This document shows, piece by piece, positions 3,453 through 38,900 of a DNA stretch of 64,000 bases. The position numbers and the translations under genes are program-made. Numbering within the stretch: the stretch's first letter is position 1; the number at the start of each line of letters is the position of its first letter. A model generated the notes under the pieces. The model saw only the letters and a program-made list of their open reading frames with translations. It was not told the DNA's origin and searched no databases. Source of the DNA: Psammoneis japonica (Eukaryota); assembly GCA_008632985.1 (NCBI GenBank), contig QPGO01000068.1:186001-250000 (forward strand). Reading direction: 5' to 3'.

Positions 3453-3536
3453 GATTGCGGCTTGGCACACTCGTATGGAGCAAGTCTGTCAATAATTAGA
3501 AAACCATTTAAAAGGTACTCTCTAGTCTAGGACAAG

Positions 3537-12194: not shown

Positions 12195-13424
12195 ATGAAA
12201 ACTTTCACTCGAACGATCCCACAAAGGGAAAAGAACGTGCCACGAAGATTTAAGAGGACGAATGGTCTTTTCTGTTCCGCTGCGATAGTGATCCTCCCTT
12301 CTCTAACACTAATTTATCAGGCAGCTCATTCTCGTTTTGCTGCAGACATAATAGAATTTCTAGAACCGGTTGCGGAGCCAGCTGACCCCAAAATAAGATT
12401 TCTTAGTATCTTGGAAGACATGGACGTGAATGTCTCGGCAATCGATGAAGATACTTTGAGACAACTTCCAACGTGGGATAGTGTCGAAGCGCTCTATGGC
12501 CCAAAGCCAATTGTTCACGGATTGGAGGTTTGTCAAGCATACCGCGACAAGGTTGCGGCGGTGGACCGACGTGTTGCTGTGTCGGGATTGTTCAATTCTG
12601 GGACCAACGCCCTCTACATTGTTTTGGAAAAGAACTGTCATATTCCCGAGCGCGTCAAGGAAGTAGGTCCGAGACAACACGGCATGGAGTGGCAGGTGAT
12701 TCTCTTATTTGAATTTCGTTACATGTTCGTCGTACTTGTCTTGGCTGATTCTTTTTTTTTTGTTGAACATAATCACGCTTAGGTGCCGTGGGGCAAACAC
12801 AGTCCTCTCCACTTTCGCTCAAACTTGACGGTACCGCGATACAAGAATCACTCGGATGCAAAGAAAGATCATGTGTTGCCGGTAGTTTCCATTAGGAACC
12901 CGTATGAATGGATGTTGTCCATGTGTCGTAACAGGTACGCGGCTTCTTGGTCACATAACCAGACGCACTGTCCTAATCTTATCGATGGTGAAGGGAACCC
13001 AAATCCGTTAAAGTTTAGAGTTGCGCCGGATACCTTCGTCCACTATGACTCACTGGCGCATTTATGGAATCAGTGGAATCGACAGTACTATGAGTTGTCG
13101 GAATACCCACGCCTCATGGTACGACAAGAAGACCTGATCTTTTATCCAAATGAAACAGTGGAAGCCATATGCACTTGTGCTGGGGGTGTAATGATGTCAC
13201 ACAACGATGGTAATTACACTGAAGGGCACTTTCAATATTTTTTGGGAGAGGCCAAAGACCACGGCAAGGAGGAAGAGCGGACAGATTTCATGAAGGCCTG
13301 GATAAAGTATGGTCAACCAACAAACTGGAGTAAGTTTGAAATTGGTGATACCAAATATGCTCAAGGGGTTCTCGACAAGGAAATTATGGCAACATTTGGC
13401 TATTCTGATCGTCCGCCGCGGTGA
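12195..13424 (+). CDS. Sulfotransferase-like protein, paralog B (intron 12696-12782)
   Basis: GLFNSGTN, WQ|VPWGKH, VSIRNPYEWMLSMCR, VRQEDL; intact spliced frame. Confidence 0.82.
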
Positions 13425-14517
13425 TTCATTGCCCCGTCACGGCTTAGAATGAACGACGTGTGGTTCTCAGTGGCAAACAGATTCAGTCTTAGCTATTTGT
13501 TTGGTCAGATATGCTCAAAGTGTTCGACTGACTTCTTATCCATGGACAATGCATGGTATTCCTTCAGCGATCAGATTTTAGTCGTACCAGGTAGCTATCA
13601 CAATAGCAGCAGTCGTAGCTATCACAATAGCAGCGCTCGAGAGCCACAGAAGTGCATCGTTTTCAATCCTTTTGTTTGAACCGCGTTTGCCTCGATCGCC
13701 TTTATCTTGATGAGATCACCGGAGATGAATTTAATGCGCAAGAGGGCCGCACCGGTGAGGTGAACCCGCCCGGCCGGGATCAATCGGATCGCCCGACGGT
13801 GCGGTCATCACTGCAGCCTCAGGTCACCGACTTTAGAATGGGCAAGATGACGAAATGGTGACGACTCTTGGTCCGTTGAGAATGGCACCACCAGCTCAAC
13901 TGGGTTTGCCCCTGCAGAACTTCCATTTCCAAAAATGAGACATGGAACCACCACCACTGATGACTTGTGTCTCAACACGCCAGTGGCATTCAGCACTGTG
14001 ATCAATGGCATCATCAGAAGCAAACCATTGCTCAACATGGAGACATTTTCCATTTTTGAAGGTTGGAGGGAAGTGAGCAATGGTTGGAAAGAGGTTTGAC
14101 AGATGTGGAGTTGTCAGAAAGTGGTTTGTCATGTCAACCGGTGGGCACAGCGACCAATGGAGGGAAGGAGGGAGGGAGGGAGATGTTGAGAACTCCAACT
14201 GGACAAAGACCAGTGTGACTCTTCTTGGTGGTTTGCAGCTTCCAAAGGGCTCAGCTTCTTTTTTTTTTTGTGAATTCCTTCATGAAGCAATGTGGCCATT
14301 GGGGGACATTGCCAACCCCAACAACCTCAAAACTGTGGCCGTCCTTTTAAGCTGAAAAAAGATTGCAAATTTCAAGCTTCAACATTGCACTGGGCTCTCT
14401 GCAGTCACATGTTCTCTGCCTGGGTGTGAGCATCTTTTGACAGCCCCAAGCCAACAAAATCTCAGGGGGGGGGGGGGAAGCACATGCAAAAAAAGAAGGG
14501 CAAGAAAAGGCAGCAAA

Positions 14518-14964
14518 TGCAGCATGCATGCAGACAAAAGGTTGTTTTTGTCACGCCCTTTGTGACATTTAAAGGCTGCAACACGTCGCCGTGATGCACC
14601 AACTCTTGTTGGCAGCTGTGTGTTGCACTCCTCCCCATGTGTCACGCGTCCACACGGCTCTTTGCCAATGTGTGCTGACACTGCACGGTTTTGGCGGAAC
14701 AGTGTGGGCACGTACGAAGGAACGTGCAGAACTGCACAGAGTTTTGCGCGTTCGACAGTGATCAACGTTGCTGCAGACAACTCCCACTCAGGGTTTCGAA
14801 CCCCTGGCCTCCTGCCCAATGGTTGCGATGAACCACTCCGCTGTGAATTCACAGTGCAGCATGCACGCAGACAAAAGGTCATTTTTGTCACGCCCTTTGT
14901 GACATTTAAAGGCTGCAACACGTGCCGTGATGCATTGACTCTTGTCGGCAGCTGTGTGTTGCAC
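14518..14964 (+). repeat. ~110-bp direct repeat (14518-14628 and 14855-14964)
   Basis: Shared cagacaaaagg..tttttgtcacgccctttgtgacatttaaaggctgcaacacgt...ggcagctgtgtgttgcac; most differences are at TG/CA/CG positions. Confidence 0.9.
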
Positions 14965-15901
14965 AAAGCCCCCCCCCCCTGGGATCGCTGCAATGATTTG
15001 CTGGAGCAACAGATGGCGGCACTTTGCCTTGCAATCATGTTGTTTCTTGGAGCACATTGGTTTTGGTGACTCACATTGTGGCCCACATTTTGCGCGGGGT
15101 CTTTTGACAACTTGTTCTGCACCTTTCAACCTTCTGTGCTTAAAACAACTGTTCTTTGAGCACCAACAAGCAGGGCATGCCCATCAAATGTGTGCAAGGT
15201 GGCTGCAGTTGGAACATTTGCAAAACTCTGCTTGACAATGTCAGGTTGCACCACGTGTGTGTCACGAAACATTTTGCATTTGCGCAGCCTGGACAAACAT
15301 TGTGGCAAATGTGCAGAAAGTCTTGACATGTCTGCATTGTTGCTGGGTGACATCCTGGCTCCTGTGCATCAGCGAGTTGGGGCGCATGCCAAGAAATGGC
15401 AAGTTTGTGCTGTGCCTGCATTTCTCAAGCATCTTCTGATGGCACAGCTTCCAAAAATGCAGTGCTGGCTGACCAGCTGCACCTTGCTTTCCAGGTTGTC
15501 AACCCCATCTACAGTGCACCAGGTGGGCCACAACTGAGTGCTGCGTGTCATTCTTGTTTTTGCTGGCAACATCATGGTCATCTTCCAAAAAAGTTTGTTC
15601 TTGTTTTTGCTTCTCTTTTTTTCTTCACACCAAATGTCTTTGGTGGTCAGCTGCCAAGATTTTTTGTTCTCTTTTCTGGCCTCTGGCGTGTCCCATTCTG
15701 CCCTTCTGTTTGTCATGCTGGGAGCAAAACTTGCCACACTCAACATCTTTTGAAAAAGAGATCATCATTCAAGTGCGTCTCTGCTTCCTGGAAAGCAGAA
15801 AAAAGAAATCCCAGGCAAAGCAGCTGCCACATTCTGGGGATGTTGCAACTTCTTTGTTGGGTGTCAAAAGCTCAAGACACACAATTGCACCACTCTGTGC
15901 A

Positions 15902-16395
15902 AACCCCACTTTGCAAATCAGTTGACACAGATTGATGCTTGGAAAGCAGCCCATTTCTGGTTTCTTGATGTCCTGCACATCACAAGATGCATTTCCACTG
16001 CCCCTCTTTGGTGGGTTCATGATGGCTTTTTTGTTTTTCTGAAGCACCGCCCACATTTGCTCCTCCTGTGCCCATCTTTTGCACAACAAAAGAGCAGTCT
16101 TGCAGCTCTTTAATTTGGGAGAGCAAAAAATGAGGTGTGGTTGGGGCATGAAGACCATTCTGTGAACCCCACTCTGCAAATTAGTTGGTGCAAATTGGCA
16201 CTTGGAAAGCAATGCATCTCTGTCTTCAGCAGCCTGCACATCACAAAATGCACCACCGCTGCCCTTCTTTGGTGGGTTCACATTGGCTCTCTGTTGTTAA
16301 AGCAGCACATTGACTCCTCCCATGCCCACATTTTGCACAACAGAAGAGGGGTGGTCTTGCAACTCTTCAACTCATGAGAGCAAAAAATGAAGTGC
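15902..16395 (+). repeat. Diverged tandem repeat, unit ~260 bp
   Basis: aaccccact.tgcaaat.agttg...cctgcacatcacaa.atgca...ctttggtgggttca...gagagcaaaaaatga.gtg occurs twice. Confidence 0.85.
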
Positions 16396-19076
16396 AGTGA
16401 GTTGCAGCATGAACAAACTAAAAGTGACTTCTTCCAGCCCACTTCTCTTCTTTTCTGAGCCTTTCTCATGAGTTGCCAGATGATGCTCTGTGTGAGCAGC
16501 AGAGCTGTCCCAACCCCCCCCTCCCCAAGATTTTGTTCTTCTTTTTGTTTGAATCTGTGGCATTGATTTGTGAGAAACAAAGTGTTGCACTTTCAAGTGT
16601 GTCATTTGCTCTGCTGTGCTCAGTCTGCACTTGTCAATGCTCAATTCTTTCAGCCCCCCCCCCCCAAATGCCTGTCTTGCACTCCCCAAATTGTGTTCAA
16701 GGCAACTGGAGCATCATTTTGTTGGGAGGAAACTTTCAGAAAAAAGGTTCCTTTGCCTGCTTTTCTGACAACCACAACAACCACAGAGTTGCCTTGCTTT
16801 TGTGCATTTGCCAAGCCAGCATGGCTGTGCTGTTTAGCTGACACCAAGAAACTGCTGACTCAAGAACAAAACCATCACAAAAATGTGCCTGGTGACAAAG
16901 ATTTTGTCACAGAAGACACCATCAATGTGCAAGCCATGCAGGCAGCTGTTGACTTGCCCAGCTGTGCAGAACCTTCCTCAGGCCAGATCCTTCCTCATGC
17001 TCAACAGCCAGAGCCAGCAGGGGGGGGGGGGGGCATTTCAAAGTCACCAGCACTGGGCTGTGGGACATTGTGTGCTGCTGCACCAAGATGAAAGATGTGC
17101 TTGACTTTCAATTTGCTGCCAAACAACTGGATGCTCCACCCAGCACCATGAGTTTCCCAACACCCCTGACATCCTTTTTGAAGAGCTTGCTGCATCTGCT
17201 CAAACTTTTGGCTGGAGCAAGGAGGTTCTGAGCACTGACATTGACAAAGCAAGGCTCCTCCTCTTCAAAAAGCAGAAACCAAAGGCACACGCCTGTTGAA
17301 TGTGGTCAAATCTCAGCTGAGTCACAGCTTGCATGGTTTCAGCTTTCAGGCATCTGCCTCCATGTCAAGATGCCAGGGGTGTTCACCAAAGCAGCTGCCA
17401 ACTCTTGTCTGTCTTGTCCAGGCTCCAGAGGGCACCACTCTGGGGATGAACCTCCAAGGTTGTCACAAACTGTTGACAACAATGAGCATTTTGTGAAAGG
17501 CAGAAGTTGACTCCAGTGCTGCAATGTCTGTCACCTGGGACTGGGTCAGCAGCCTGGGTGCTCACATGACCATTGTTGAGATGGTCAGATGACTGGTGCT
17601 GGGGCATTCCAAAATCATGCCAAAGCTGCAGAAAAATGCTTGGCACTCATGGCTGCTTGCTCCAGCTCCAACCTGTTGAACAATGCACTCAAAACACCCA
17701 TCCCACAGGTGTTGATGAAAACTTTGCAACTGCTTCCATGCTAAAATGCACAAGAGCACCAGCCATGAAAATGGACCTGATGCTGACCCTTGGGCACCCA
17801 CACCACCACATCTGAGGCAGAGAACATCATGCACCAGATCCTTGCAGAGTTGAAAAGTGGGTGGCTTTTGCTGAGGAGCCACAAACCATTGTCACACTTT
17901 GAGCCAAGACAGAAGCTTTTTGCAAGGCCAAAAACATGTGACAAGTGGTGATCATCAAAAGCAATGCCTCAGCTTGCCTCGCGTTCCTTCCAAGAGCAAC
18001 CAAGCCAAAGGAAAGGGTTCTGACAATCACAGCAAGCACATCAGAAGTTCCAGATCCTGTCAAATGGATGCAAGAAGCCTTTTTTCTATGGCAAACATGA
18101 CACCCAGCTCCAGAAAGGATTGACAGTCTCATTTGCCAAGGCTGTTGATTGTCATGTGCACAAGCGCACAGCAAGTGCCATGAGCACTGGGCTTCTCAGA
18201 GGACAAAACCATGTTGGGAGCTGCTGTGCTCTCTGGGAAGAGCGCACAGCATGCCAAGTGCTGCCTTGTGGCTGCTCTGTTGCATGTGCTCCACTCTTGC
18301 AAAGTGTCTTTTGTGCATTGACAGAGCTGCGGCAACTCCTCTTCCCATGATGCTAAAACTCGCTGGCGAAATTTTGCTCGCACAGCCAACACAGCTGAGT
18401 TTTGCAGCACACCCCAATTGCCAGTGTGTGACCACTTTTTCTCCAAACCCAAAGACTCTCATTGTGCAGCTGAAAAACACATTGTGCCGTGCCCCTTCTT
18501 TGCCACTGGAAATGAGAGGTGGTGCAACATCAAGCCAAGTGGCGTGTTTGTGGCCTTGCTTGTTGATTGGTGCCTGGATGAAGACTTCTGTGGGGCAACC
18601 AGGACGGACAAGTGTGTCACAGCAACAGATCATCCTTCCAGGTTGCCCATTGGCACTGCCGATCAACAAACCGGCATCTTTACTAAACAGCTGTGACTGC
18701 CAAAGGAGCTCTTCTTTTAAGCTCCGTCGTTTGCCATTCGGCTGACGTCCATGTGTCATGTTGTGAGTTGTGAGGCATGTATGTAGGGCCCTACTGTACC
18801 GTATGTGACCACCACAATGAAAATGTCAAATGTCAGATCGACCGTCGCCCATAATTGTTGGTCCTATAGCCCCCTAATTGTTCAAGACATCTCGAACATT
18901 TATTGGGAAATCCAATACCGCTTCATTAATAGCTCACTTCTCAACATTCCGACGTTGTCCCCGTTTAGTAGAGTAATCACTAATGCATGAGCGCTGCTAC
19001 TAACTGAACTCAAAGAGTCAGTTTTGTTTCATATTTGGAGTGAGGGGTGAGGGTCGCGGTGCATTCAAAACTCGAG

Positions 19077-20306
19077 ATGAAAACTTTCACTAGAAAGATC
19101 CCACAAAGGGAAAAGCACGTGCTACGAAGATTTGAGAGGAAGAATGGTCTTCTGTGTTCCGCCGCGATAATGATCCTCCCTTCTCTTGCACTGCTTTATC
19201 AGGCAGCTTATTCTAGTCTCGCTGTAGACAAGATAGAATTCTTAGAACCGTTTACGGAGCACGCTGAACTCCAAAAAAGATTTCTCAGCATCTTGGAAGA
19301 CATGGACGTGAATGTTTCGGATATCGATGACGACACGTTGAGACAACTTCCAACGCGGGGTAGCGTCGAAGCGCTCTACGGCCCAAAGCCAATTGTTCAC
19401 GGATTGGAGGTTTGCCAAGCATACCGCGACAAGGTTCCGGCAGCAGACCGACGTGTTGCTGTGTCAGGATTGTTCAATTCTGGAACCAACGCCCTTTACA
19501 TTGTTTTGGAAAAGAACTGTCATATTCCCGAGCGCATCAAGGAAGTAGGTCCGAGAGAACACGGCATGGAGTGGCAGGTGATTCTCTTATTTGAATTTCG
19601 CGACATGTTCGTCGTATTTGACTTGGCTGATTGTTTCTTTTTTGTTACACATAATCACACATAGGTGCCGTGGGGCAAACACAATCCTCTCCACTTTCGT
19701 TCAAACTTTACGATACCGCAATACAAGAATAGCTCGGATGCGAAGAAAGATCATGTGTTGCCGATCGTTTCCATTAGGAACCCGTATGAATGGATGCTGT
19801 CCATGTGTCGTCACAGGTACGCGACATTTTGGTCGCATAGTGAGAGTCAATGTCCCAATCTTATCGATAATGAAGGGAACCCAAATCCGTTAACGTTTAG
19901 AGTTGCACCGGATACCTTCGTCCACTACGACTCGCTGGCGCATTTATGGAATCAGTGGAATCGACAATACTATGAGTGGTCGGATTACCCACGCCTCATG
20001 GTACGACAAGAAGACCTGATTTTTTATCCAAAGGAAACAGTGGAAGCCATATGCACTTGTGCTGGGGGTGTGATGATGCCAAACAACAGGGGTAATATCA
20101 CTGAAGGGCACTTTCAATATTTTTTGGGAGAAGCCAAAGACCATGGCAAGGAGGAAGAACAGACAGATCTCATGAAGGCCTGGATAAAGTATGGAAAACC
20201 AACAAACTGGAGTAAGTTTGAAATTGGTGATATCGAATATGCCCAAAGGGTTCTCGATAAGGAAATTATGGCAACGTTTGGCTTTTCTGTTCCACCGCCG
20301 CGGTGA
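19077..20306 (+). CDS. Sulfotransferase-like protein, paralog C (intron 19578-19664)
   Basis: Close paralog of B with the same motifs and intron position. Confidence 0.82.
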
Positions 20307-20639
20307 TTTATTGCCCCGCCATGGCTGAGAATGAACGACGTGTGGTTCTCAGTGGCAAACAGATTCAGTCTTAGCTATTTGTTTGGTCAGATGTGCTCAA
20401 ATAGTTCGACTGACTTCTTATCCATGGACAAAAGCTTGGCATTCCTTCAGCGCTTAGATTTAGTCATAGCTATCACAACAGTAGCGCTCGAGAGTATTAT
20501 AAACATCGTTTACACGCTTCTTTTTCGAACCTCGTTTTGCCTCGATTGCTTTTGTTTTGACGAGATCACAGCAGACCAACACAGACGAAGTCAAAGCTCA
20601 AGAAGGCCGCACCTGGTGAGGAGAACCCGACCGGTGTCA

Positions 20640-22767
20640 GCGCCGGACGAGAGCTTGGGGGACTCCTACGATGCGTTTTGATTTGGATCTGTGTCGCTGT
20701 CCACAGATGGAACAACTCTGGCTCGTATGACGACGGCATCAGAAGTGCCAGCAACGCTGGAACAGAGATCCATGCAAGTGAAACAATGCGTGGTCGAAGC
20801 CAGCTCGTACTGTCATTTTGTCTGCTGTTCTTGAATGTCTCAAAAGCTTCTTCCAGTCCACCAAGAAGGAATTGCAAAAGTCCTGGTGGACACTGTTGTT
20901 CGGAGCAGCCAAGGCAACAGGACCGCTGATGAAATTGTGCATCTGCACATGAATCACATGGATGTTGGTCAAACTGTGTGCACTGGACCAACAAGCAAAA
21001 TGAACCCTGATCCAACAGCTGAAGGGATCACTGCCTGACTGTGCTGCAACAGATTGCAGCAGGAATGATCATGGACATGAGAAAAAGAAGCCAGATTGCA
21101 AAAAAGTTTGCACAAGGGCGGGTTGCAGTGACAAGACATGTTTTCTTACTTTGGCAAGCATTCACAACAATGATGTCAATTGGCTGGACTAGATGAGTGG
21201 CAAGAGGTTGTTTCAAGATGTCAACAAGTGTGACTCACATTGTTTCTTGCCACTCTTCTGCACCTCCTTTGAACAATGGATGGGAGGGAGGACAGCAGCC
21301 ACCTTTTTGGAGTGAAACATTTTGCAGTGTCACCCTCCGCCAGCTGCACTGCAAAAAAATTGTTTTTTGTTCTCGTGAATCACTCTTGGTGGCACCAAAA
21401 ACTCATCTTGTTTTTTTTTTCTGTGTCAGCACCCAAACACTGTTCAAAAGGGGAACAAGGCACAGGACCAGATGCAAAGAGCCTGTCTGGAAGCAACACA
21501 CAAGTGGGACATGCATGACCCCATCATCAAATGGCAGCATGGCAAAAAACACCATTTTTGCTTGTTTGTGCTGAAAAGCCACTGCAGCTTCCTCCCACAC
21601 CCACGCTGCATTTCATCATCATTCAACAGGAGTGTGCATGCTGGTGGTGCTGGCTAACTGGAGGTGTGCCTGTTGAGCAGCAGCACATGGACAAGAAAAC
21701 AGAAAACACAAATCAACACACAGCAGAGCTGAGAAGAACATCTCAATCTTTCACAACTTGCTCCTGACACTTGCACTGCCAGTTTCTTCCATGGCAGCAG
21801 TGCACATCATGCATCAGAAGTGTGCGAGAGATGAGCTGTGTGGCAGCTCATGCCTGGTTGCAAAACACAAAAGGAGTGCACAAAGGCAGGCAAAAGAGGC
21901 ACCACTGTCTTTTGGGGTGGCAATTGTGTTGAAAAAAAAAAAAGAGTGCTGAGATTGAAAGCCACTGTGAATGTGATGGGTGCTCACAATGGGGGTTGTC
22001 AGATGCAAGGATTTCAAATGTCAGGTGTTGACACATGCGTGGCTGTCAAAACTTTTGCACACTTGCACAAGAGAGGCAGACAAGGAGACACAGAATTGAC
22101 CCAAAACACCACTTCATGGATGGAGTGAACAAAGCACACAAAACCTTCAGCTGTTTTGCGCGGCTGTCAAAAAACATCTGCACACTTGCACTGACAACAA
22201 GAGGTGCAAAATCTGCTCAAAGCACCGTGCATTGTAAAACACACAAACAAAGCAAAACATTTAGAAGCTGATTTCATGCACAACTGAGGGAACATTTCAC
22301 CTGCATGTTTTCAATGCCAGGCTTGTCGCGCCAAACTTTCAACATGCCACACGAAGGTGTGCCCCTCCACACTGACCTGCTGCCGTCACCAATGAGGGTG
22401 TCTGTGAGGAGATCTCAACCTGCCACTTTAATGATTGTGACCCAAAAACACCTGCTGCCAGTGAGCCACTCTTGTTGAGCCTTGCTGTTGGGTGCTTGGT
22501 GCACAAAAAGCTTTTTGCATTTGTCATGACGAGGAAAAGGGTTTCCTCAAGACATTTGACAACAAGAACAACAGCTGCGCCACTCAGATCAATGCATCTG
22601 ATTGGGCAGCTGCTCTTTGCCACTGTCTCTACTTTGCTGTTTCTGTGATGTACAGCAGAGTGGTGTGATTCTCGCCCTGCTGTTGTTTCTCACAGCACAG
22701 TTCATGATGTCTCCAGGCAGGGGTGTCGAGGGAGATCCCAGAGGTTTTGGCACATGTGCTGGTTGCT
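20640..22767. mobile_element. Degenerate TpA/CpG-depleted repeat sequence, probably an older element interrupted by the 22768-28885 element and resuming ~28894-29050
   Basis: Same dinucleotide signature as the other islands; no recognisable protein. Confidence 0.5.
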
Positions 22768-23197
22768 CATCTGGGACACCAACAATCCAGGTGTCGCACC
22801 AGCCATCAAGATTTCTTGAAATAAAACCCGACATTTTCTCCCTTTAATTTGTCAAGTCAGCTTTTCTGAAATGTTCAACATCAAACATCCATGTTCCTCA
22901 ATTTGGCTGTTTGCCCCCCCCCATCCGACAAGCCTCATGTGCACATTTAATGCCATTTTAATTTCTGGATTGTGTGTCAATCAACTTTCTGGATCAAAAT
23001 CGTTGCCTGCATCCGTCAATCTAGATTCTAATTGTTTTCTCAATTTTCTCTCCCTGCCCATTCCATCCTTCCTTCCCATCCATCCGCACGTTGCATCTCC
23101 ATGTTTCTGCCCTCACCACATCCCCAAGTGATTGTTGCTGCACCCACTCTTTCCTTTCAATTCTCTTCTCAACTCCTTCATCTGTGTGCACAGGCCA

Positions 23198-24300
23198 TGT
23201 CATCTGATGGTCTTGTTTGTCCATGGTGCAAACGAACCGGTTTCTTTTCCGAACGTGGCCTCAGCAGGCACATCACAACTAACTGCCTCCGTTCTGCCAT
23301 TTCCACCAAGTCTTTCAGTTGTCCTTGTTGCGGACAACGTGGGTTTGACTCTGAAAACAACGTGCAGCATCACCTGTCTTGGCACTGCACCGCAGCATCT
23401 GGTCTCCATCCCCCATTGACACAGTTGTGCCACACAACCCAATTGTCTTCTTCATCCGGCAGAACATCTCTTTCCTCTCATCCTCTGGATTCTGCCTCCG
23501 TCGGCTCCCTTGGATCCAACACCAACAAACCCAAATGTCCCCATTGCCGTGTTCCCTTTTCCAACATCACCCTTCATCTACAGAAGTGCTTGCCCTGCCG
23601 TGAAAAGGAGGAAATGTCCCTTTGTCTGCATGCCGCATCTTCCACTGCCGCCCACACACTTCCCCCTCCAGACGACGACCATGATGAATCACTGGACGAC
23701 CATGATGATCCTGCTGGGTTTGGTTTCTCCGACGACGAACCCCCTCCTCCCCTCCCCGAAGTCCTTTGGAATCCAGCTCCATCTCCTCCCACACCAACGG
23801 ACAATTCTTCTCCAGCTTGTCCTCCCTCTGCCAGAAGTGGACTGCGCCCACCCTCCATCAGACGCTCTGGTTGATTGCGTTCAGCCGCCAATGCTGACCG
23901 CGTTCATTTGCCCAATGTGTGGGAGAACAACACAGCCTCAATTTGGTGTCAAGGCTGTTTCCTGTGCCAAACGGGGCCAGATGCACCGGCGGGGGACAAT
24001 GCCCAGATGGATCATTGGTCAACACTGCAGGTTGAGTGGGGTGGAATGTCATCGGGAGAGAAGTGCGATGTGTCGGATGGAAAAGAGATTCATTGGTTCC
24101 ATTTTGGTGATGTGGCCCAACAGGTGAGGGACTGGGTGTGATTCTTTGGGGTGGGATCATTTTGAGGTTGTTGTTTTGCAAAGGGAATGACAAGGCCACG
24201 GAAGACAAGAAATGGAGTCACCCAAATGATGTCTGTTCGCTGCTCAACATGAGTTGATCAGTGACTTGGACAAGATTCGAGGAGAATGTGGTTTGCTGTG
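23198..24300 (+). pseudogene. Degenerate TE ORF with three C2H2/C2HC zinc-finger-like motifs and a Pro/Asp-rich linker
   Basis: CPWC..FSERGLSRH..C, CPCCGQRGF..QHHL..HC, CPHC..F..LHLQKC; downstream frames broken. Confidence 0.55.
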
Positions 24301-24353
24301 GGAGATGCACTTTATGTCACGACACTGTACAGGCTGGCATCAAGTGCACAAGC

Positions 24354-24880
24354 AAAAAAGTGGCGCCAAAGGCATTCATCACCAGACACATGTGTCAACA
24401 AAAAACTGATGCCAAATTCTTCTGTTGACAAATGTGTTTGACAACAGAAAAAGTGATGCCGAATTGCTTTGTTAACAAACAGTTGTGGCAACAAAAAAGT
24501 GACACCAAATCACTCTGTTGACAGATGTGTGCATTGCCAAAAAAGCAACAGTTTGTTTGTGGTGCGGAATGTGCGGTGGATGGAAGCTTTTGCTTTGTGT
24601 CTGCTGCTGTGGTGATGTGAAAATATCTCACATCATCACTGACAGGATTGTGAGCAACAAAATTGTTTTCTGTGCTTTTGAGATAGCTGGGATGACCCAT
24701 TTGGTGAGATCATTCAGCAAACAGGATCGACGAAGATCACATCACACGTGACCATTTACGAAAAAAACGTCTGTGGTGCACCCGACAGATGGACTGCCAT
24801 TGTCAAAACATCACACGGGACTGTTTACGAAAAAAACACCCGTGGTGCACACAACAGACAGACTGCCATTGGCAACACAT
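24354..24880 (+). repeat. Internal tandem repeats: ~46-bp unit x3-4 (24354-24530) and ~70-bp unit x2 (24740-24880)
   Basis: Repeated aaaaagtga.gcc.aat...tgttgaca and cacacg.gac..tttacgaaaaaaac....gtggtgcac....acaga..gactgccattg. Confidence 0.75.
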
Positions 24881-24913
24881 GTTTGGCGAGAAAGCCATTT
24901 TCGTTGGAAAGCA

Positions 24914-25774
24914 ATGGGTGCAGACTTTTGCTGGATTGGGTCTGTTCCACTGAAAGAAAAAGACTGGGTGCCATTTGATTTGGCAGAACAGGCATTTTCA
25001 GAGAATGGCGCGGAAGTGTTCTGTGAACGGATGCCGGAAATTTGCCGTTGGCCGACAACATCATGCCAGAAACATGGCAAGTTACTGACACACCCGGGCA
25101 AAATGAAATCTCATGTTGTCAAGAGTGAGAAGGCGGGGTCCAAAGAAAGAGAGCACCAGGAAAGAAAAAAAGGCCACTTGCAAAAATTCAAAACACCACC
25201 ACCCCTGCTCAACAAGATGACAACACTTGCAAACAAGGCACCAAGTGGGAAGGGAGAAAAGGAAGGACACTGTTTTGTTGGTGAGTTTGCCATCAACAAA
25301 AAGGAAAAGGCAGAAGGTGTTGGGTTGGCAGAAAAAATGTTGGAGTTAATTCCTGGCTTTCCCCTGGCAGGTGATTCAAGCAGAAAGATGTCCCGACACA
25401 CAGCAGCAAACGCTCCTGCTTCAAGTTCAAGATCTAACTTCTGGTCAAAGGGGGAAATTCATCACGATTACGTGGAAACAAAATTGTCACCTGGTGACAA
25501 AATTTTCACCATGTTTCTGTTCCTCGATGACACAATGGAGCACAATGGTGCAGTGGAGACATGGCCGGACAGTTGTGAGGCAACATTGAATGAGAAGGAA
25601 CGCGAAAGACACTTGGTCAGGTTGGGTTTGGAAAAACAATCGCTGGTTGGAGAAGCAGGCACTGCATTTGTTTTTGATGCAAGAATGTTGCACCGAGCTT
25701 TGCCTGACAAAACGAATTCGGATCGAAGGAACATGGCATGTCCAGTCCATAATTTTGACGTGGCAAGCATGTGA
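24914..25774 (+). pseudogene. PhyH-like (phytanoyl-CoA dioxygenase family) 2OG-Fe(II) oxygenase carried inside the transposon; mutated
   Basis: HHD (HxD), TMFLFLDD...NGAVETWPDS, GTAFVFDARMLHRA, T.SDRR match the PhyH double-stranded beta-helix signature. Confidence 0.7.
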
Positions 25775-25899
25775 ACATGGCAAGAGTGTGAACAAGCATG
25801 TGTTGGAATGCAAAACTGGCAAAGTGGCAAGTTAACACAGGCGCAAAGCAGGTTTGTGTAAAGGGCCAACCAACAATGCATTGCTTGCATGGACGACAG

Positions 25900-26376
25900 T
25901 CACATCACAAACAAAGTGGAATTGCAAAGTTGCCCACTTTTGGCAGGCTTGAATTTACGTTTGATGTCAGACCCTGGGTCGTTCCCAGTGGAATGCCCAG
26001 TCTCCACGGCATCGTCTCTTTTCTTGGTGCACTTGTGAAGCAGGTGCCCATCGACACCGCCTCCCCACAACAGATCGTCTGGACAGGCAGGAACAAAGAA
26101 TGCTTCGTGCCTCCATTTGTGCGCACAAACACAAAACATCACATCCAGTGAAATGACAATGGTGCCTTCAGGACACTTGTTGGACAGTGTCTCCTTGAGT
26201 TGGTTCTGTGTCGCGTTGTTGTCAAAAAGCATTCGCCCATTGCAGTTGTTGAAGAAAATCTTTAAGTTGTTCAGACGGTGCAACCGACACACAGCATCGT
26301 CTTCGGAGAGGAAGCCCTGATTGATCAGGGTCGGAAAGCGACTGGCACTGTTTTGTGCCATGTGGCATTGCACCAC
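25900..26376 (-). pseudogene. Unknown degenerate TE-borne ORF
   Basis: 158-codon open frame with protein-like composition inside the TIR element; no family recognised. Confidence 0.25.
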
Positions 26377-27358
26377 TGAGAGCCAAGATCATGACGGGGA
26401 CGGTGGAACTCGATGCTGCAGGCATTGCAGGCAGGAACAAGCAGACGACAGGCAATCGCAAAACCGCCAACACCACCACCAACGTCGAGGAAATTAAAAC
26501 GGCTTCGAATTTGTGCCGCAAAGAGAGCGGGGTTACAAATGACCTTGGCGGAGAAGGCAAAGCTTGCCGTGCCGCCGTGTGATTCCACACCACCACCAGC
26601 AAAACGACCAATTTGATCATCAATTGGCGGCATGTGATTGTGACAGAGGGAACACGTGTTCCCATGACGGGAACGACTCACGACAACCACATCTTAGAGA
26701 CAACAACACACTTCAGTGGACATTAAAGTGGACTGGAAAATTTGGGCAACAGAGAGAGCAGTTGGACAAACATGGTGTCAGGGAAGCAGAGGGAATGACC
26801 CATTAAGACAGGGACAACAAATGGGAGGTTTGACACGACTTGACACACCAAATGAAGCAGATGTTGCATCCAGAAGGAAGCGCAATGCATGCATCAACAT
26901 GAGGAGATACAACACATTGTTTGGCATTGATTCAAATGATGTGGCAATCTTCATTGGTGCATTGGATTGGCTGACAAAGGTGCACAATTCAAAACAGTGA
27001 AACGTTGACAGAAATGCAAACATGGGGTTGGGGATGAGCACTCAAAAATGATGCAAAGACCTGTTTGAATCGAGAGAGGACACGCGAGCAACGACAAAAC
27101 CGAGAAAATCACATGCAAAAGTGCGTTCTTTTCACAACTCACCTTTCACAAAGCGACAGGAAAGGACGGAAGTTCCAAATGAGAGGAAGCCATTGGGAAG
27201 GTAAAAAAAAAAATGGAGGATGCGGTTCTCACAGGAGCAACGGAGGGAGGAAGTGTGACTTCCAGTGGCAAGTGAGATTGAGAAAGGACATGACAAAGAG
27301 TTGCTGATGAACTGACATGGTCATTGGATTGATCTGTGTGGTGTCACATGAAGTCACC

Positions 27359-28468
27359 ATGAGTCCTGCGGTGGCGGCCTTGTTGCATGCACAAAGAAAC
27401 GAACATGGGGAACTGAACAGATTCCAGCATGCAGGTGGCGATTCAAGTTCGGCGGTGACTCCCACAGAGGGATGTCTTGTGTTGGATCGTGCACCAGCGG
27501 TGGGCAAGAAATTGACAGCATCGATGTTGACTGAGGTCATCAATGAGAGTGTTTGGCCATGTCGCAAGTTCACAATCTTCGATCATGAACTCGCCGTGGG
27601 AGGAGATCACATGAAATTGGTTCTGCAGGAGTTGAGGAGCATGGCGTCTTCACCGGAGAAGTTCTGGGAAGAATGCAAAGAGGTGTTCAGGACCAAACTC
27701 AACCGAAAGAGGAACAATGTGCAGGACAACATTGGGAGGAGAATGACAGGCAAGCAGATGTGTGCGTGCCGGTGATTGTGTTGGAGGCGATTGTCCAACG
27801 GGATGAGTGTCTCTTCCTTTGCCATTGTCTGTGCAGTTGCTGCTTTAGAGGGATCGCTGGTGGCTTACGAAGACTTGATAAAGGGAAGAAATGACAAGAA
27901 CACATGCGCGTGGTTCTTGGAAACTGTGGTGCCGATGGTGGCGGGACAAGCGCAGTTTGGTGGAAGCACAACCGACATGCTTCAGGAATGGCTTTCGGTT
28001 TCGTTGGAGGCGTTTGCTCTGCCAGTGTACTTGAACTGCTGCAACAAGGTAAAGGACATGGCAGAGAAATTGGAAAAGGAAGAAAATGTTGCAAGGAGAA
28101 GAAAGCCAACTGTGAACGATGCTGCTCCTGCAAAGTGCACAGCGCAGGCAGCGGGGGAATCGGCAAAGAGGAACCAAGGATGGAGCAAGGAGGGGATCAA
28201 GAAGCACAATGATCTGTGTCAGTGGGTGGTGAAAGACAGAGAGAACAACCAGGGATTCGGTGCATGGTTCAAGGACAGAAGGCGAGAGAAGACAAACTTG
28301 TCTCAGGAGGAAAACAAGAAACGCAAAAGAGAGGAAAAAAGAAAGGAGAGAGAGGAAGGATGGGCGGCGCCAATGGGAGAGGACCTGCCATTGCAGGCGG
28401 TGGATGCAGGCAATGGAGCGGTAGCAAATGCCGCAATGGCCACCAACCAAACTGGTGTGCAAACGTAA
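27359..28468 (+). pseudogene. TE accessory protein, two exons (mutated intron 27750-27836)
   Basis: ORFs 27317-27775 and 27776-28468 join in phase across an 87-nt intron. Motifs KFWEE..F..KLNRKRNNV, SLEAFAL..Y.N, GWSKEGIKK(H)NDL and a charged coiled-coil tail. Confidence 0.6.
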
Positions 28469-29120
28469 TTTGAAACAAACAATAAAATCCAGACAAGTGA
28501 AAATTAAAAAAAACATTGTGCGATGCGGTTTAGATGCAATGGCGTGTGGCAATTGGGAATTTGGATTTGAAAACGGCATGGCAAAGAGATAAAATGTAGG
28601 ACGAGTTGGTAGAAAAGGAGGGTGGATTACAAGCAGCAACATTTGTGTTAAAAGAACGAGAAACCCCAAATGTCAATTGGGGCGCAGGTCTGCATTGTGT
28701 GAAAGGAATGACCACACTTAAAAGTGAGAAGCGATTTGGGTTTTAGAAGCTTATAAACTTGTGTAGTTCTCATATTATATTTAAGGAGAGAATTGGCTTG
28801 TAAGTTGACAACAATCTGGCATTAAAGTCAAGAAATGCCCAGATTGTGGCAGACGGTCAGACCCAGATTGTTGGCGTCCCAGATGCTGGTTGCACCACGA
28901 AACAACCATTTTATGTCCCGCTGCTTTCACAAGGCACTCCATTGACATTCTGACCAGTGGTTTGAGAATGTGTTTGCATGAAAAGCATGGAGAAGTCACT
29001 CTCAGAGTTGTTGACAATGTTTGCTCCTGTGCATGGGGAAGAGGACAGAGCCAGGTTTCCTCTCTATTGCTTGTAGGCTACTGCACCTTATCGAACTTCG
29101 TCGTCGCCGGCCGCACAGCC

Positions 29121-30338
29121 ATGGGGCCATGGCCAACCAGCGCAGCAAAAATGACGCTGTTCTCGAAGACGAAAAGAGGCAGAGGCCCTCCTTACTTCAT
29201 CAGCACCTCGAGCTTTAAAAGGTGTCTGCTATTTCTAGGAGCGGCCTGTTTTCTTCTGGCCTTTGCAACCATAAATGTGATGATACACCAGACGAGCAGT
29301 TCGATCCTTGTGCACCCACAGTGGTTTAAAGATCAGCACAATCTACTTGACTTACATAACACATTGCAGAAAGAAAGTCACCAGATTGCGAAAAGTCAGC
29401 AGAATAAAGGCGATCCTATATCAGGCAAAGAGCGTCTGGTGGAGATACTAAACACAATGAACTTTACCGATATGATTGCAGAGGAGACGTGGAAAGCGAT
29501 CCCTCCATGGTCTCGAATATCTAGGCTGTATGGCAGTGAACCGATTGTTGTTGGAATGGATCGATGTGAGGAATTCAGAGAAAATGTGTCGGAGGAAAAT
29601 CGTCTGATTGGACCGGCAGGTTTATTCAATACCGGAACTAATCTCTTGGCTGAGTTGCTCAAGAGGAATTGCGTCATGGAAGCAAGACAAAAGAAAATGG
29701 GAAAGCGCAGGGACGGAATGATTTGGCAAGTTCCTTGGGGAAAACATACGCCACTAGATTTGAGCAATCACACCATCCAGCAACCAGAGTATCAACGCAT
29801 AAACAAAGACCACGTGTTGCCTGTAATGACGATTCGTGAACCTTACGAATGGTTCAACAGCATGTGTCACAACAACTACGTGGCAAGATGGCCTCATCAA
29901 CATCGCTGTCCAAACCTCATCTTTCCAAACCAAACTTTTGTGACAGTCATGATGCAGTACTTTCATGGTTCGATCAAGCAATATCACAAAACACTCGCGC
30001 ACTTGTGGAATGATTGGAATAGACAGTACTTTGCAGAGAACTTTACACGCCCGCGCCTCGTTGTCCGTCATAAGGACTTGATTTTTTATCCAAAAGAACT
30101 TACGAAACTTGTCTGTGGTTGTGCTGGTGGAGTCTTTAAGGACCAAGACTTTAGCTATGTCATGGAAAGCGCCAAACCCAACAGGAAAGGGGCAAAGCCA
30201 TTTGATGGACTCGTGGGAAACTGGATCAAGTACGGAAAGGAATTTGACGCAACTATTTTCCCTGAGGAGGACTTGCGAATCGCAAAGGATGTGTTGGACC
30301 AAGACATTATGGATCAATTTGGCTTCAAGGGTCCCTGA
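29121..30338 (+). CDS. Sulfotransferase-like protein, paralog D (intronless)
   Basis: TM, GLFNTGTN, uninterrupted WQVPWGKH, MTIREPYEWFNSMC. Start ATG is 29121 or 29151. Confidence 0.82.
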   Translation: MGPWPTSAAKMTLFSKTKRGRGPPYFISTSSFKRCLLFLGAACFLLAFATINVMIHQTSSSILVHPQWFKDQHNLLDLHNTLQKESHQIAKSQQNKGDPISGKERLVEILNTMNFTDMIAEETWKAIPPWSRISRLYGSEPIVVGMDRCEEFRENVSEENRLIGPAGLFNTGTNLLAELLKRNCVMEARQKKMGKRRDGMIWQVPWGKHTPLDLSNHTIQQPEYQRINKDHVLPVMTIREPYEWFNSMCHNNYVARWPHQHRCPNLIFPNQTFVTVMMQYFHGSIKQYHKTLAHLWNDWNRQYFAENFTRPRLVVRHKDLIFYPKELTKLVCGCAGGVFKDQDFSYVMESAKPNRKGAKPFDGLVGNWIKYGKEFDATIFPEEDLRIAKDVLDQDIMDQFGFKGP

Positions 30339-30554: not shown

Positions 30555-31712
30555 TCAAGCACCGAAACCGCCTCCGCCAGATTTTCGTTTGTTCTTCTTT
30601 TTCTTACCACCGCCAGAACCAAAGCCCTTGATCTTGCTTTTGATTTCCGGGAAGGTTCTTAACGCTTCGAGTTTTCGTTCTGCCATGAATTTCTGTCCAG
30701 GGTCTGTCGATACCAGCTCTGGGATCTCTATGCAGTCGTATATGAATTGAAGTGCTTTTTGTTCGACGGGCGTCAAGGACGGATGCCACAGTCGAAGCAT
30801 TAGAATATAACGCATTTTGTCACTCTCATTCACAGCATCGTGCAAGATGCTTGTATCGAACAGCATGACTTCTCCGTTGATCCATTGTCTCGTATCATCT
30901 CCAACAGTCAATCGGCATTTGTTCTTTCCACTCTCTGGAATGTCCAGAGCCAAGTGTGAGGTCAAGACAAAGTTTGTAAAGTCCGAGTGCATCTTGACGT
31001 TTGTGTTTGGCTTCAAGCTGGCAAAGAAGGCCTCTACCACTGGAGCTCCGCATTCATGAACGGCTGTGGCGGCCTTGGGAAAGATATTGACATTGACAGG
31101 ATCCCACGCCCCCCTATCGTACAGAACCAACGTTCGCCATCCTTCTCCATAGGACGAAGCGTCCTCTGAGAGAGCTCCAGCCCATACGTTGTTACCTTCT
31201 TTGGTTAGCTTGTCCATGTCAGCTGTGGCACTCAGGAATTCCTCCTTAATTTCTTTGTAATGCGAGGCAAGCTTCTTGGTCCACTCAAAGTCGTTTACAT
31301 CCCAGAAAGTCCGAGCAGGAAGTCCAGGTACAAATGAGGGCGCGTGTTGATGACAATTACTCGTTTCAGGTGAGTCGACCGGTGGGTCTTGTTGGGACCC
31401 CACAAATTCATGATGTTCATAACCGGTCTCCGTAAGTCGCAATGATTCCACAACTCGAGAAGCATCGGATCCAAAACGCTCAAGAATTCCCAGTTCGATC
31501 TGTCCAGCAAACGTATTGGGGTTCAGGGGAGTCGTCAGCGGAGGAGTTGTCTCTGCCGGTCTGCTGCTAGAAGAGCTGACCATGTGGTTGCGCACAAGAG
31601 CTTGTCGGCTTTTCTGCGAGGGAGAACTGTGCAATACTCCCCATGACGATCCAACCGAAAAAGTGTGACACGCTGGAACACTCGTCGAGAGAAGTAATAT
31701 TGCGATTCTCAT
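30555..31712 (-). CDS. Aspartyl/asparaginyl beta-hydroxylase family 2OG-Fe(II) dioxygenase, probably plastid-targeted
   Basis: FFASLKP..VKMHSD, LTSHLAL, W..GEVMLFDTSILHDA.N, RYILMLRLWHP; signal peptide followed by F (CHT-FSV). Confidence 0.88.
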   Translation of the reverse strand: MRIAILLLSTSVPACHTFSVGSSWGVLHSSPSQKSRQALVRNHMVSSSSSRPAETTPPLTTPLNPNTFAGQIELGILERFGSDASRVVESLRLTETGYEHHEFVGSQQDPPVDSPETSNCHQHAPSFVPGLPARTFWDVNDFEWTKKLASHYKEIKEEFLSATADMDKLTKEGNNVWAGALSEDASSYGEGWRTLVLYDRGAWDPVNVNIFPKAATAVHECGAPVVEAFFASLKPNTNVKMHSDFTNFVLTSHLALDIPESGKNKCRLTVGDDTRQWINGEVMLFDTSILHDAVNESDKMRYILMLRLWHPSLTPVEQKALQFIYDCIEIPELVSTDPGQKFMAERKLEALRTFPEIKSKIKGFGSGGGKKKKNKRKSGGGGFGA

Positions 31713-32259
31713 TATTATCGAAAATATCAAAAGCCGCGTAGTGGCAACAAGGGACTGTTAGGATGCACACTGCAAACAGGAAGCAGAACAAGAACAGCGG
31801 CGCTATCTCAGAGAATGTTTTGATGTTCGGATGTCGAGTGATAGATGTGTGCTGTTTGCTGATGTGCTGATGATGCGGTGGAGGGAGGTGACGCGTCGGC
31901 GGCAAGACCGTCATCGAAAGATCGATTTCTTTCATCTCTTTGAATTGTTCCTGCTTGTTCCTTGTTCCCGACTTCTTGTCTCGACTGATGATGGTGTCTT
32001 CGTTGACCCATCAGCGTGAACAAAGGGAAGATGCTCCAAGATGCTCTAACAAGAAAACAAGGTTATAGACGACTGCAGGAAAAGAAGCGAGCAACGAAAA
32101 AGGATGAAGTACGACTTAATTTTATGGATCATCTTCTAATCAATCATGTTCTGCTCTCAAGTGATCCTTTCGTTTTCGTATTTGTCAACTCTCGCAATAT
32201 GAAGGGTTTCGTAATAAAAGATAATGTACAAGTGTAGGTTTCAGAGTACACTTTTCTCT

Positions 32260-36489: not shown

Positions 36490-38900
36490 AACAACCAACT
36501 CGTCGTTGGCGTCAAAGGCGGCCTTGATTACCTCGTCCATTCTGCTCACGCCAACATTGAGCGCTGCCTTTTTTCGGCCTCCTCTGCCAATGCCTTGCTC
36601 CTCTTGGACCTTGTCAACATGTTCAATGAGGTCCCTCGCGATGCATGCAGTGCCAGTGCTGATGCCCTTGATTTGTCACCTCAGGGGACCGAAAACACCC
36701 CTCGCCTGCTTCTCCCCTTTTTTCGATGTGGTGCATCAGAACTCCAAAGGTGTTGCCAGCCCAACTCATCCTAGAGCTCCTTCATGCAAGAGGAGGGCTT
36801 TGCTCAAGGCTGTCCCCTTGGCCTGGTCTTTGCTTGCCTTGTTCCCCCCCCGCCACTCACTCCGCCCTCTCTCAACCAAGAACTCCTTGAATGCCTCCCC
36901 TCCCACTCTCCCACTTCTGTCAGTTTCCACATTAATGATGCTCATGCTTTTCTTCCCCACTCCTTCACACCTTGGTTCCTGCAACCCCCCAAGACTCTTG
37001 GTGCTCCCCGTGGCATCAAGCTCAACCTGTGCAAGACCGGGGAGGAGTTTGTTCACTTTGGATGAGAGAGTGGCTGGAGAAAGTGTCGGAAAGGAAAGAG
37101 CTGACAAGTGCACAAGAACCCAACCTGTGTCACAACTTGAACCCTGACATCCCACCTGATCTCTTGCTTTGGACTTTTCCCTTTCAAGATTCCCCCCTTG
37201 CTGCCACCCATCACTTCCTTTGCTGTGCCCCGCTGTTCACACCAACCACTTCCTCCTCACTGACTCACTCACTGGCTCACTGACTCACTCACTGGCTCAC
37301 TGGCTCATTCACTCACTCACTCACTGGCTCAGGGTTCACTCACTGGCTCAGGGCTCACTCACTGGCTCAGGCTCACTCACTCACTCACTCACTCACTCAC
37401 TCACTCACCATTGCTTTTCTCTCTGCTTTCCTTGGTGGCTTTGGCCTCTGCAATCCTGCTGCTGCTGTCATCTCCTCCTTCCTCATGACTCCACTTTGCT
37501 CCTTCTGCTTTGCCATGCACAGAGCATGACTCCCATCTGGCAACTCCCTCAAACTTCTTCCCAAGGGTTTCTGTCTGTCTCTCTGTTCCTGGAGCAACCC
37601 CAATGCCCACCTTCACCTTTTTGCATTCTCTTCCAATGCTGTGCTTCCACCCCCACTTCTGACTCCTCATCATTCTCTCCACTTGTCAAGTTCATCACAC
37701 TCCCCGGCCTGGTGCATCCCCTCTGTCATGCTTTCCAGCTGCACATCACCAATGCTGCCCTTGCCAATGCTCCCCTGAATGTTCAAGCTGCCCTGCTTTC
37801 TCTCCTGTCTCCTCTCACCAGCCTCCTGCTCTGCTCCATCTCCAGCTGCTCTGGTGCCACTCTCTCAGCTTCTGACGGATGTGCCATTGTGGCCCAGACC
37901 AGCACAAGCTTTGCCTCCCTGTGCTGCCCCCATTCCTCACAGGCACCCCCCTGCTGCTCCTGTGGTCATGCCTTCCTTGACACCTGTGGTGACCATGCTT
38001 TTCTTGCCTGCAAAAGCAATCACAAATCCAAGTTGTCTGACAGCACTCATGACACTGTCTTCATCATCACCCAAACCTTGGGCCCCCCCTTGCCAAACTT
38101 TGCAACTCACCCAACAATGTTCATCTCAAGCCTGCAAACCTCCTTTTAAATTGCCCCCTCTGCTTCTTGCCCGGCCAACGTTGGCATTGCCACCCCTCCT
38201 CCTGCTGCTTCCATTGCCACCCCCTCCCACCATCACTGCATTGCTGTTGATGTCACTGTGCCCAAAGCTCCTCCTTGCCCTTCTCCCAGTCTGCCTGCTC
38301 CTTCTTCTCTGGCTTTAACTGAGGCACACCACACAAGTGCGAGGTCAAAGTTTCTTGGCCCTGTTGCTTGCTCCCTTGCCACCCAGTCTCTTGGTGACAG
38401 TGGGGGGGTCTTCTTTCTTCCTTTTGCCATTGATCACCTCAGTGGTCTTGGTTTCTTCTTTCATCACTTCCTTTTTGGCTCCTTGCTCCTCCTCTTCTCT
38501 CTGCTCCCAAACCAAGCCTCCTTGGTCTGATTGTTCTGCCCTGCAACACTCTGACACCCTGCACTGCCTTATGCCATGCCCTTGCTTCACCATCCGCTCT
38601 TCTTTTCTCCACTGACTCTGCCTGGTGCCAGCTTGCTACACAGACCATTTTGTTGGCTCTCATCACTCTTCTGCTCCCTCCCAATGGGCCACTCAGATTC
38701 TTGGATGCAACATCGTCCACCATCTCTACGTCCACACCCTTCGATTTCTCTCTACCCTTCGTACAGATGCTTCCGCAATCCCTTCTTTGACCCTTCTTTG
38801 GCTCCCGCTCCTGCAGCCATTTCCATACCTCCTCTCGCTGCCTCTCCATCCTCCATTGACTGGGCTCTCTAACTCTTTACTTAATAATCTCTACATACCA
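36490..38900 (+). mobile_element. 5'-truncated, degenerate non-LTR retrotransposon with restriction-like endonuclease (CRE-like)
   Basis: RT remnants QLVVGVKGG, LLDLVNMFNEV, QEEGFAQGCPLG, F(H)I(N)DA (=YxDD), GIKLN..KT; CxCG..LD.CGDH.F.C knuckle; (C)PA(N)VGI and AVDVTVP (=RPAD/DVT); FLPFAIDHL.GLG. Confidence 0.85.
37257..37408. repeat. (TCAC)n microsatellite with TGGC interruptions inside the retroelement
   Basis: tcactcactcactggctcac... visible directly. Confidence 0.95.

Follow-up and report, generated by a model that had tools for sequence, protein, structure and literature searches.

Evidence for TpA to CpA/TpG change at the splice donor and tyrosine codons of a repeated-element gene in Psammoneis japonica

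Analysis of a 64,000-nucleotide (nt) stretch of DNA from Psammoneis japonica (contig QPGO01000068.1, positions 186,001 to 250,000; hereafter the window) revealed a two-exon gene within a high-copy repeat, with an intron that starts with GC and with Cys and His codons where many relatives encode Tyr. The gene is best read as a copy from a many-copy element that was changed after copying by a process acting on DNA and converting TpA into CpA or TpG, a reading to which a probability of about 0.8 is assigned. The change ran from TA to CA/TG, acted on DNA copy by copy and on both strands, and was confined to a tract. An initial annotation of the window had proposed TA as the ancestral state, and this is well supported by GT donors at the homologous intron in five of five loci, Tyr at the positions of the Cys in AKCT and the His in KKHN, and six CA-versus-TG double differences between copies.

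The gene and the donor of its intron

The open frames 27311-27775 and 27776-28468 join in phase 1 once 27750-27836 is removed, leaving 356 codons without a stop (junction AGA ATG ACA G, intron GCAAGCAGATG...TGTCTGTGCAG, then TT GCT GCT), and the initial annotation's proposal of two frames joined in phase over an 87-nt intron was thus borne out. The intron length, which it had called typical for this DNA, recurs in two host-gene introns of the window (12696-12782 and 19578-19664, each 87 nt) and lies within the 68-108 nt of the homologous introns in relatives. A cryptic donor, GTGATT at 27772, was rejected as its use with the same acceptor shifts the frame into a stop. The motif GCAAGCA is not rare in itself, as the TA-poor DNA of the window (17.4 kb) contains it nine times when both strands are counted; since both this motif and long open frames are common in such DNA, the case must rest on homology.

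Relatives of exon 2 are encoded in seven metagenome loci, each of which has an exon-1 relative upstream as well, with a gap between the two homologies of 86-125 nt in six of the seven. Loci L001 and L007 were near-identical and counted once, and L006 was without the junction region, leaving five distinct loci for comparison. In all five, an intron interrupts the same codon in the same phase, directly after the conserved ...RKKMT/A; the acceptor was CAG in all homologous introns, and the donor was GT in every locus and GC in none (Table 1). Compared with GTAAGTA, the window donor carries T to C at +2 and +6, both being T's that precede A, and the suggestion that GCAAGCA represents a GTAAGTA in which each TA became CA fits the donors of relatives at the shared intron position. 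Homologues were checked for a GC donor together with Cys/His at the same positions, and gave GT in five of five loci with Tyr the commonest residue at the Cys of AKCT. Of the five distinct homologous introns, three have a CTAAC motif 18-27 nt upstream of the acceptor; no YTRAY motif was found in the window intron, of which the CCAAC (Table 1) could be the former branch site.

An ordinary functional GC-AG intron, combined with lineage-specific Cys/His substitutions and nothing rewritten, would account for the same gene without any such process. GC-AG introns are a minor U2-type class of most eukaryotes and need a strong context such as CAG/GCAAG, and T to C at +2 with CAG/GCAAG otherwise intact is the donor variant best tolerated by spliceosomes. 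The window intron shares with this class the GC start and the intact consensus (CAG/GCAAG), and both exons are open with no frameshift relative to homologues. It differs from a conserved GC-AG intron in that GC is common to none of the five homologous introns, all of which have GT, and in lying in an 8-kb tract from which TA has been erased (0.10 of expectation). The intron itself has 0 TA and 54% G+C, against 4-12 TA and 34-41% G+C in the homologous introns and 5 TA and 33-34% G+C in the two host introns. The GC-AG explanation is therefore very unlikely, and the change of a GT donor by TA to CA is preferred. A GC donor would be expected to weaken splicing and not to abolish it, such that inactivation of the element's gene through donor damage is plausible but unproven.

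Tyrosine columns and differences between copies

Exon 2 was aligned with 151 family representatives, in which six columns were Tyr-rich (Tyr at least 30%), and the window has C, C, C, C, H, and F at these columns. Family-wide, Cys/His occupied 35 of the 889 cells of the six columns compared to five of six in the window (binomial probability from these counts, approximately 5e-7); 125 of the 151 representatives had none and the highest count was three. The codons at the five positions are TGC (four) and CAC (one), each one TpA-context step from TAC. Tyr was present at both the AKCT and KKHN positions in L001 and L002, the closest relatives with DNA, while the closest protein (P0001, 51% identity) has His at both, the His at AKCT being the opposite-strand outcome of the same TA. 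As P0001 has Phe Phe at residues 67/68, these two residues are less certain as former Tyr. The spliced product contains 2 Tyr in 356 residues (0.6%) compared to a median of 3.1% in 171 family proteins, comprising the representatives plus fetched cluster members.

The motifs AKCT and KKHNDLCQ, which the initial annotation had read as AKYT and KKYNDLYQ, both occur in exon 2 as claimed. The reading held for AKCT (Tyr in 97/151) and for KKH (Tyr in 64/151) and failed for the second Tyr of KKYNDLYQ, as Cys outnumbers Tyr in the DLCQ column (29/151 versus 22/151) and the Cys of DLCQ may be original. The latter Cys, being the commonest residue of its column, suits ordinary substitution; the Cys/His at five of six Tyr-rich columns versus 35/889 cells does not.

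Low Tyr contents (0.9-1.7%) and His at two to three of the six Tyr-rich columns were also observed in P0001, P0007, P0020, and P0061 from other samples. As His at Tyr columns is the expected product of sense-strand TA to CA, the same process may act on the family elsewhere, and these relatives hint that it may be active in several organisms.

Membership of the gene in a many-copy repeat was indicated by sequencing depth. A total of 2656 contigs from one DNA run were placed on 24000-29500 at ≥80% likeness, with a summed depth of 1500-6500 up to approximately 28967 versus 62 for a neighboring single-copy contig beginning at 28857; summed contig depth is not a strict copy number. The contigs of this run put the right end of the repeat near 28885. 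A further 189 loose ends of contigs on 24000-29500 ran into unlike flanks. When 20400-28950 was compared with the remainder of the window by blastn and tblastx, only a duplicated 3' flank of host paralogues matched.

Compared with the other copies, the window copy differed by 440 transitions (A>G 117, G>A 119, C>T 108, and T>C 96) and 103 transversions. Context classes were taken from the 40 best-supported rows of inter-copy differences, 12 of which constituted six adjacent CA/TG double differences, with CA in the window and TG in the others in five cases and the reverse in one. CA and TG are each one step from TA and two steps from each other, and the double differences consequently support TA as ancestral. 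One listed site had CA in the window and TA in other copies, and approximately nine were neither TpA- nor CpG-type. Both strands were altered within the gene, with A>G on the sense strand four times (Tyr to Cys) and T>C on the sense strand at least four times (giving His and Pro, and twice in the donor).

The changes in both strands together with the TA-stripped intron argue against a route through RNA editing, in which ADAR-like A-to-I hyperediting of element transcripts would be followed by reverse transcription into the genome. Such a route would share the predominance of transitions between copies, and the discussion of a recent preprint cites a preference of ADAR for U before the edited A (bioRxiv 10.64898/2026.01.13.699255). 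Nevertheless, both strands were changed in a single gene within approximately 500 nt, the copies carry the intron, opposite-strand outcomes occur at the same site among copies, and the tract extends over 8 kb with no reverse transcriptase recognisable in its 52 frames. Editing of transcripts is accordingly a very improbable source of the changes.

Several observations weigh against the proposed TpA process acting on DNA. Positions 25750 and 28051 keep TA in the window and have CA or TG in 93-99% of the depth of the other copies, which by majority rule would imply the opposite polarity unless the other copies share a mutated ancestor. Among the 40 best-supported rows, CpG-type sites were as frequent as TpA-type sites (13 versus 9), and TpA erasure is therefore not the sole process. 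None of these rows falls on the donor (27750-27756), and as the relatives with DNA are just 30-39% identical, the direct ancestor of the donor is a reconstruction. In the protein, one Tyr-rich column is Phe in the window, and two exon-1 columns with Tyr (two to three relatives aligned) are Trp and Val, neither of which is a single TpA step. Exon 2 has 28 mismatches to a 40%-consensus residue, of which three are single TpA-context steps; the remaining mismatches reflect ordinary divergence in an old family.

Table 1. Features of the gene, its repeat, and the donors of homologous introns. Positions are those of the window.
Feature	Position	Strand	Remarks
TA-poor tract with the gene (8 kb, third tract)	20501-28500		TA 0.10, CG 0.48, CA 1.61, TG 1.69 of expectation
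High-copy repeat	at least 24000-28885		summed depth 1500-6500; loose ends 28885/28886
Exon 1	27317-27749	+	starts at first ATG of the open frame; ends in phase 1
Intron, GC...AG, 87 nt	27750-27836	+	0 TA, 54% G+C
Donor GCAAGCA	27750-27756	+	GT donors at same codon and phase in relatives
CCAAC, 38 nt upstream of acceptor	27795-27799	+	candidate former CTAAC branch site
Exon 2	27837-28468	+	stop TAA 28466-28468
Cys, exon-2 residue 23	TGC 27905-27907	+	Tyr 81/140; one TA>TG step from TAC
Pro in conserved SEAFALL motif	CCA 28022-28024	+	Leu in 76% of family; one TA>CA step from CTA
Cys, residue 67	Cys Cys, TGC TGC 28037-28042	+	Tyr commonest, 49/149
Cys, residue 68	Cys Cys, TGC TGC 28037-28042	+	Tyr commonest, 45/149
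Cys of AKCT, residue 100	TGC 28136-28138	+	Tyr commonest, 97/151
His of KKHN, residue 123	CAC 28205-28207	+	Phe 76/151, Tyr 64/151
Cys of DLCQ	TGT 28217-28219	+	Cys 29, Phe 27, Val 25, Tyr 22 of 151
Phe, residue 144			Tyr 96/149
Homologous intron, L001/L007			donor GTAAGTA; intron 108 nt
Homologous intron, L002			donor GTAAGTA; intron 86 nt
Homologous intron, L003			donor GTAAGTG; intron 74 nt
Homologous intron, L004			donor GTAAGTA; intron 74 nt
Homologous intron, L005			donor GTGAGTA; intron 68 nt

TA-poor tracts and the nature of the element

Four tracts of the window had TA at 0.06-0.13 of expectation (9301-11350, 13651-18750, 20501-28500, and 36501-38750), with CG at 0.20-0.71 and CA/TG at 1.57-1.85, compared to TA of approximately 0.5-0.6 in the rest of the window including the neighboring genes. 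The gene occupies the rightmost part of the third tract, the edge of which falls between the TA at 28422 and the next TA, in the stop codon TAA at 28466, beyond which TA is frequent. The normal DNA of the window (46.6 kb) had 19 occurrences of GTAAGT, and the TA-poor DNA (17.4 kb) had none. Among stop triplets of the TA-poor DNA, TGA accounted for 785 of 920 (85%) and TAA plus TAG for 135, compared to 51% TGA elsewhere, and the mean stop-to-stop frame was 35.9 residues versus 26.4 residues, being longer in all six frames. An antisense open frame of 275 codons (27845-28672) also spans the gene. To the right of the tract edge, approximately 420 nt (28466-28885) retain a high depth of 4100-4600 with normal TA (20 TA), and several contigs join approximately 28489 to 28727-28858. 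Possibly this segment inserted more recently and has not been mutated, or it belongs to the element and is spared by the process.

The TA-poor composition could also have been inherited, with the element coming from a TA-poor source, or TA could have been removed by selection related, for example, to a TA-cutting nuclease or to unstable UA-rich RNA. In keeping with this, TA is low (approximately 0.5-0.6) even in the normal parts of the window and some other family members are also Tyr-poor. Selection would not, however, swap conserved Tyr for Cys/His, place Pro in a conserved helix, and alter a GT donor; in addition, individual sites have CA in some copies of a single genome and TG in others, and the tract edge near 28466 lies inside the repeated DNA and not at the end of the element. 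Inheritance or selection of the composition is regarded as extremely unlikely, and mutation at TpA remains the preferred explanation of the tract. Deamination of N6-methyladenine, of which the eukaryotic motif is ApT, was rejected as the mutational source as it would deplete AT, which was only mildly low (0.65-0.93 of expectation).

Word-based search of public protein data identified five relatives of exon 2, and a profile search yielded 2121 cluster representatives at E≤0.001 and 577 at E≤1e-10; the relatives were named only 'hypothetical protein'. Word-based searches gave no match for exon 1 among proteins and none for exon 2 among shorter proteins, and the viral contigs searched contained no relative of the gene. 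Pfam assigned no family to exon 1, exon 2, or 10 long relatives, and a chance-level match of exon 2 to C2-set (E=0.045) was discarded. In the full-length relatives P0085, P0083, P0064, and P0093 the exon-1-like and exon-2-like parts are contiguous in a single frame. The structural model of P0085 was all-helical with a mean predicted local distance difference test (pLDDT) score of 75.7; Foldseek against the PDB returned nothing at E≤0.001, and the best result of a wide VIA-align search (Z of 6.2 over 69 residues) was within the range expected of helical models.

The initial annotation had assigned the gene to a transposable element. The many dispersed copies, evident from the summed depth of 1500-6500 versus 62, agree with this assignment, and no transposase was recognisable in the window copy. 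The locus L005 encodes a 498-amino-acid frame (L005:3-1496, minus strand) with an N-terminal C2H2 finger, head-to-head with a relative of the gene, and in a language-model atlas its nearest clusters were Plavaka transposase (score 0.97, 25 of 30 matches); those of P0085 were DUF6532 clusters of Basidiomycota (score 0.96). These two atlas results are leads towards Plavaka/CACTA-like transposons with accessory genes. Pfam hmmscan of the 498-amino-acid frame gave no Plavaka match at E≤1, none of the 52 frames of the window tract matched Plavaka (PF18759) at a Pfam E≤0.01, tblastn of the L005 frame against the window gave nothing below E=1, and tblastx of the upstream tract (20400-27310) against the seven metagenome loci gave no match. 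As a lead from these similarities, the element may be a Plavaka/CACTA-like DNA transposon. A Cys/His finger-like frame at 23032-23871 is comparable to that of L005 (zf-C2H2_4 E=4.3e-4, below the cut-off).

The surrounding host DNA contains three tandem paralogous genes (12177-13424, 19044-20306, and 28809-30338), and the TA-poor tracts 13651-18750 and 20501-28500 fall between them. The first two have an 87-nt intron with a GTGATT donor after ...MEWQ and the third is intronless at that point, with no Pfam family found for it. The repeat D1 (12195-12494 versus 19077-19376) has 86% identity, and approximately 230 nt of the paralogues' 3' flank are duplicated (13522-13773 versus 20404-20634). To the right of the third paralogue, in normal-TA DNA, lies an aspartyl/asparaginyl beta-hydroxylase domain gene (30555-31757, minus strand; PF05118, E=1.7e-36). 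The fourth TA-poor tract, 36501-38750, is composed of C 37%, T 30%, A 17%, and G 17% with CG at 0.20 of expectation, and includes 1214 nt (36933-38147) without a single TA.

A candidate process, known systems, and significance

In the proposed process, TpA on either strand would undergo A:T to G:C transitions and become CpA or TpG. The underlying reaction would be deamination of adenine to inosine in DNA by an ADAT/TadA-like enzyme aimed at repeated or silenced DNA; the tRNA substrate of such enzymes has U before A, which fits the TpA context. By the genetic code, TA to CA/TG would turn no sense codon into a stop, TAA to TGA would remain a stop, and TAG to TGG or TAA/TAG to CAA/CAG would lose one. 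With no new nonsense codons possible, the damage would be missense and regulatory, and genes would be disabled through Tyr codons, the Leu, Ile, and Val codons CTA, TTA, ATA, and GTA, GTAAGT donors, and CTAAC branch sites. A GTAAGT donor would become the still good GTGAGT by TA to TG and GCAAGT by TA to CA, and about half of the changes would hence weaken the donor.

Oxidation of the thymine in TpA by a TET/JBP-like enzyme, giving 5-hydroxymethyl- or 5-formyluracil that mispairs with G, would have the same polarity and DNA target. As TpA is palindromic, T>C on one strand is indistinguishable from A>G on the other. The repeat also carries, at a depth of 3000-5700, a 340-codon frame resembling 2-oxoglutarate-Fe(II) oxygenases (24752-25771, plus strand; PhyH E=1.1e-5, 2OG-FeII_Oxy_3 E=6.6e-4), a situation similar to that in fungi, where TET/JBP genes are associated with transposons. 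Dinoflagellate DNA has its 5-hydroxymethyluracil enriched at TpA, and G is the base with which 5-formyluracil mispairs. Against this chemistry, the oxygenase-like frame matches PhyH and showed no match to TET/JBP, and the sole published analysis favors an ADAT2-like adenine deaminase that is itself unproven. Thymine oxidation is thus unlikely, and adenine deamination at TpA is retained as the working mechanism.

In print, this signature is described for one organism only, the chlorarachniophyte Bigelowiella natans, in which a 2026 preprint describes hypermutation restricted to TpA in the integrated DNA of giant viruses and virophages (Mettrop et al., bioRxiv 10.64898/2026.01.13.699255). According to this text, only A>G and T>C occur at TpA, giving TpG or CpA depending on the strand, TpA-depleted coding sequences are enriched in Pfam domains of transposon type, and an ADAT2-like adenine deaminase is hypothesised and unproven (bioRxiv 10.64898/2026.01.13.699255). 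The P. japonica tract resembles this case in the change of TpA to CpA/TpG on both strands and in TA depletion with an excess of CA/TG. It differs in that CpG is co-depleted and that the changes were deduced from outgroups and copies, whereas new mutations were measured in mutation-accumulation lines of B. natans. The preprint text makes no mention of diatoms or tyrosine and refers to splicing in its methods only (bioRxiv 10.64898/2026.01.13.699255), and full-text literature searches found no diatom report of TpA hypermutation.

The repeat-induced point mutation (RIP) seen in Neurospora and other ascomycetes is likewise local, dinucleotide-specific, and transition-only, and likewise ruins repeated transposon genes. 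RIP converts CpA to TpA, enriches TA, and creates stops, in contrast to the conversion of TpA to CpA/TpG here, which erases TA and gives no new stops: TA was at 0.10 of expectation, the outgroup polarity was TA to CA/TG, and TAA plus TAG were 135 of 920 stops. A repeat-directed, TpA-specific DNA mutator that serves as a genome defence and is the chemical mirror image of RIP can be put forward tentatively, its chances falling slightly short of even. Such a defence would erase all TA-bearing signals, probably including TATA and AATAAA.

CpG decay through deamination of 5-methylcytosine in methylated transposons likewise has TpG and CpA as its products and affects silenced repeats. This decay operates here too, as reflected in the CG of 0.2-0.7 of expectation in the tracts and the 13 listed inter-copy sites of CpG type. 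Unlike the TpA process, it cannot remove TpA or produce TGC or CAC from TAC.

Polarity is the weak point of hypermutation claims based on composition alone; here it was set by a conserved GT donor and family Tyr codons in comparison with unmutated outgroups, and the particular value of the case lies in a process that is polarised together with the gene signals it affects. The longer open frames of TA-poor DNA constitute a trap for gene callers and favor over-prediction. A countable, genome-wide prediction concerns how many donors of mutated elements read GCAAG relative to GTGAG, since a working GT donor survives TA to TG but not TA to CA. If a directed defence is confirmed, the phenomenon, so far described in one chlorarachniophyte, would also include another algal group, one that is ecologically dominant.

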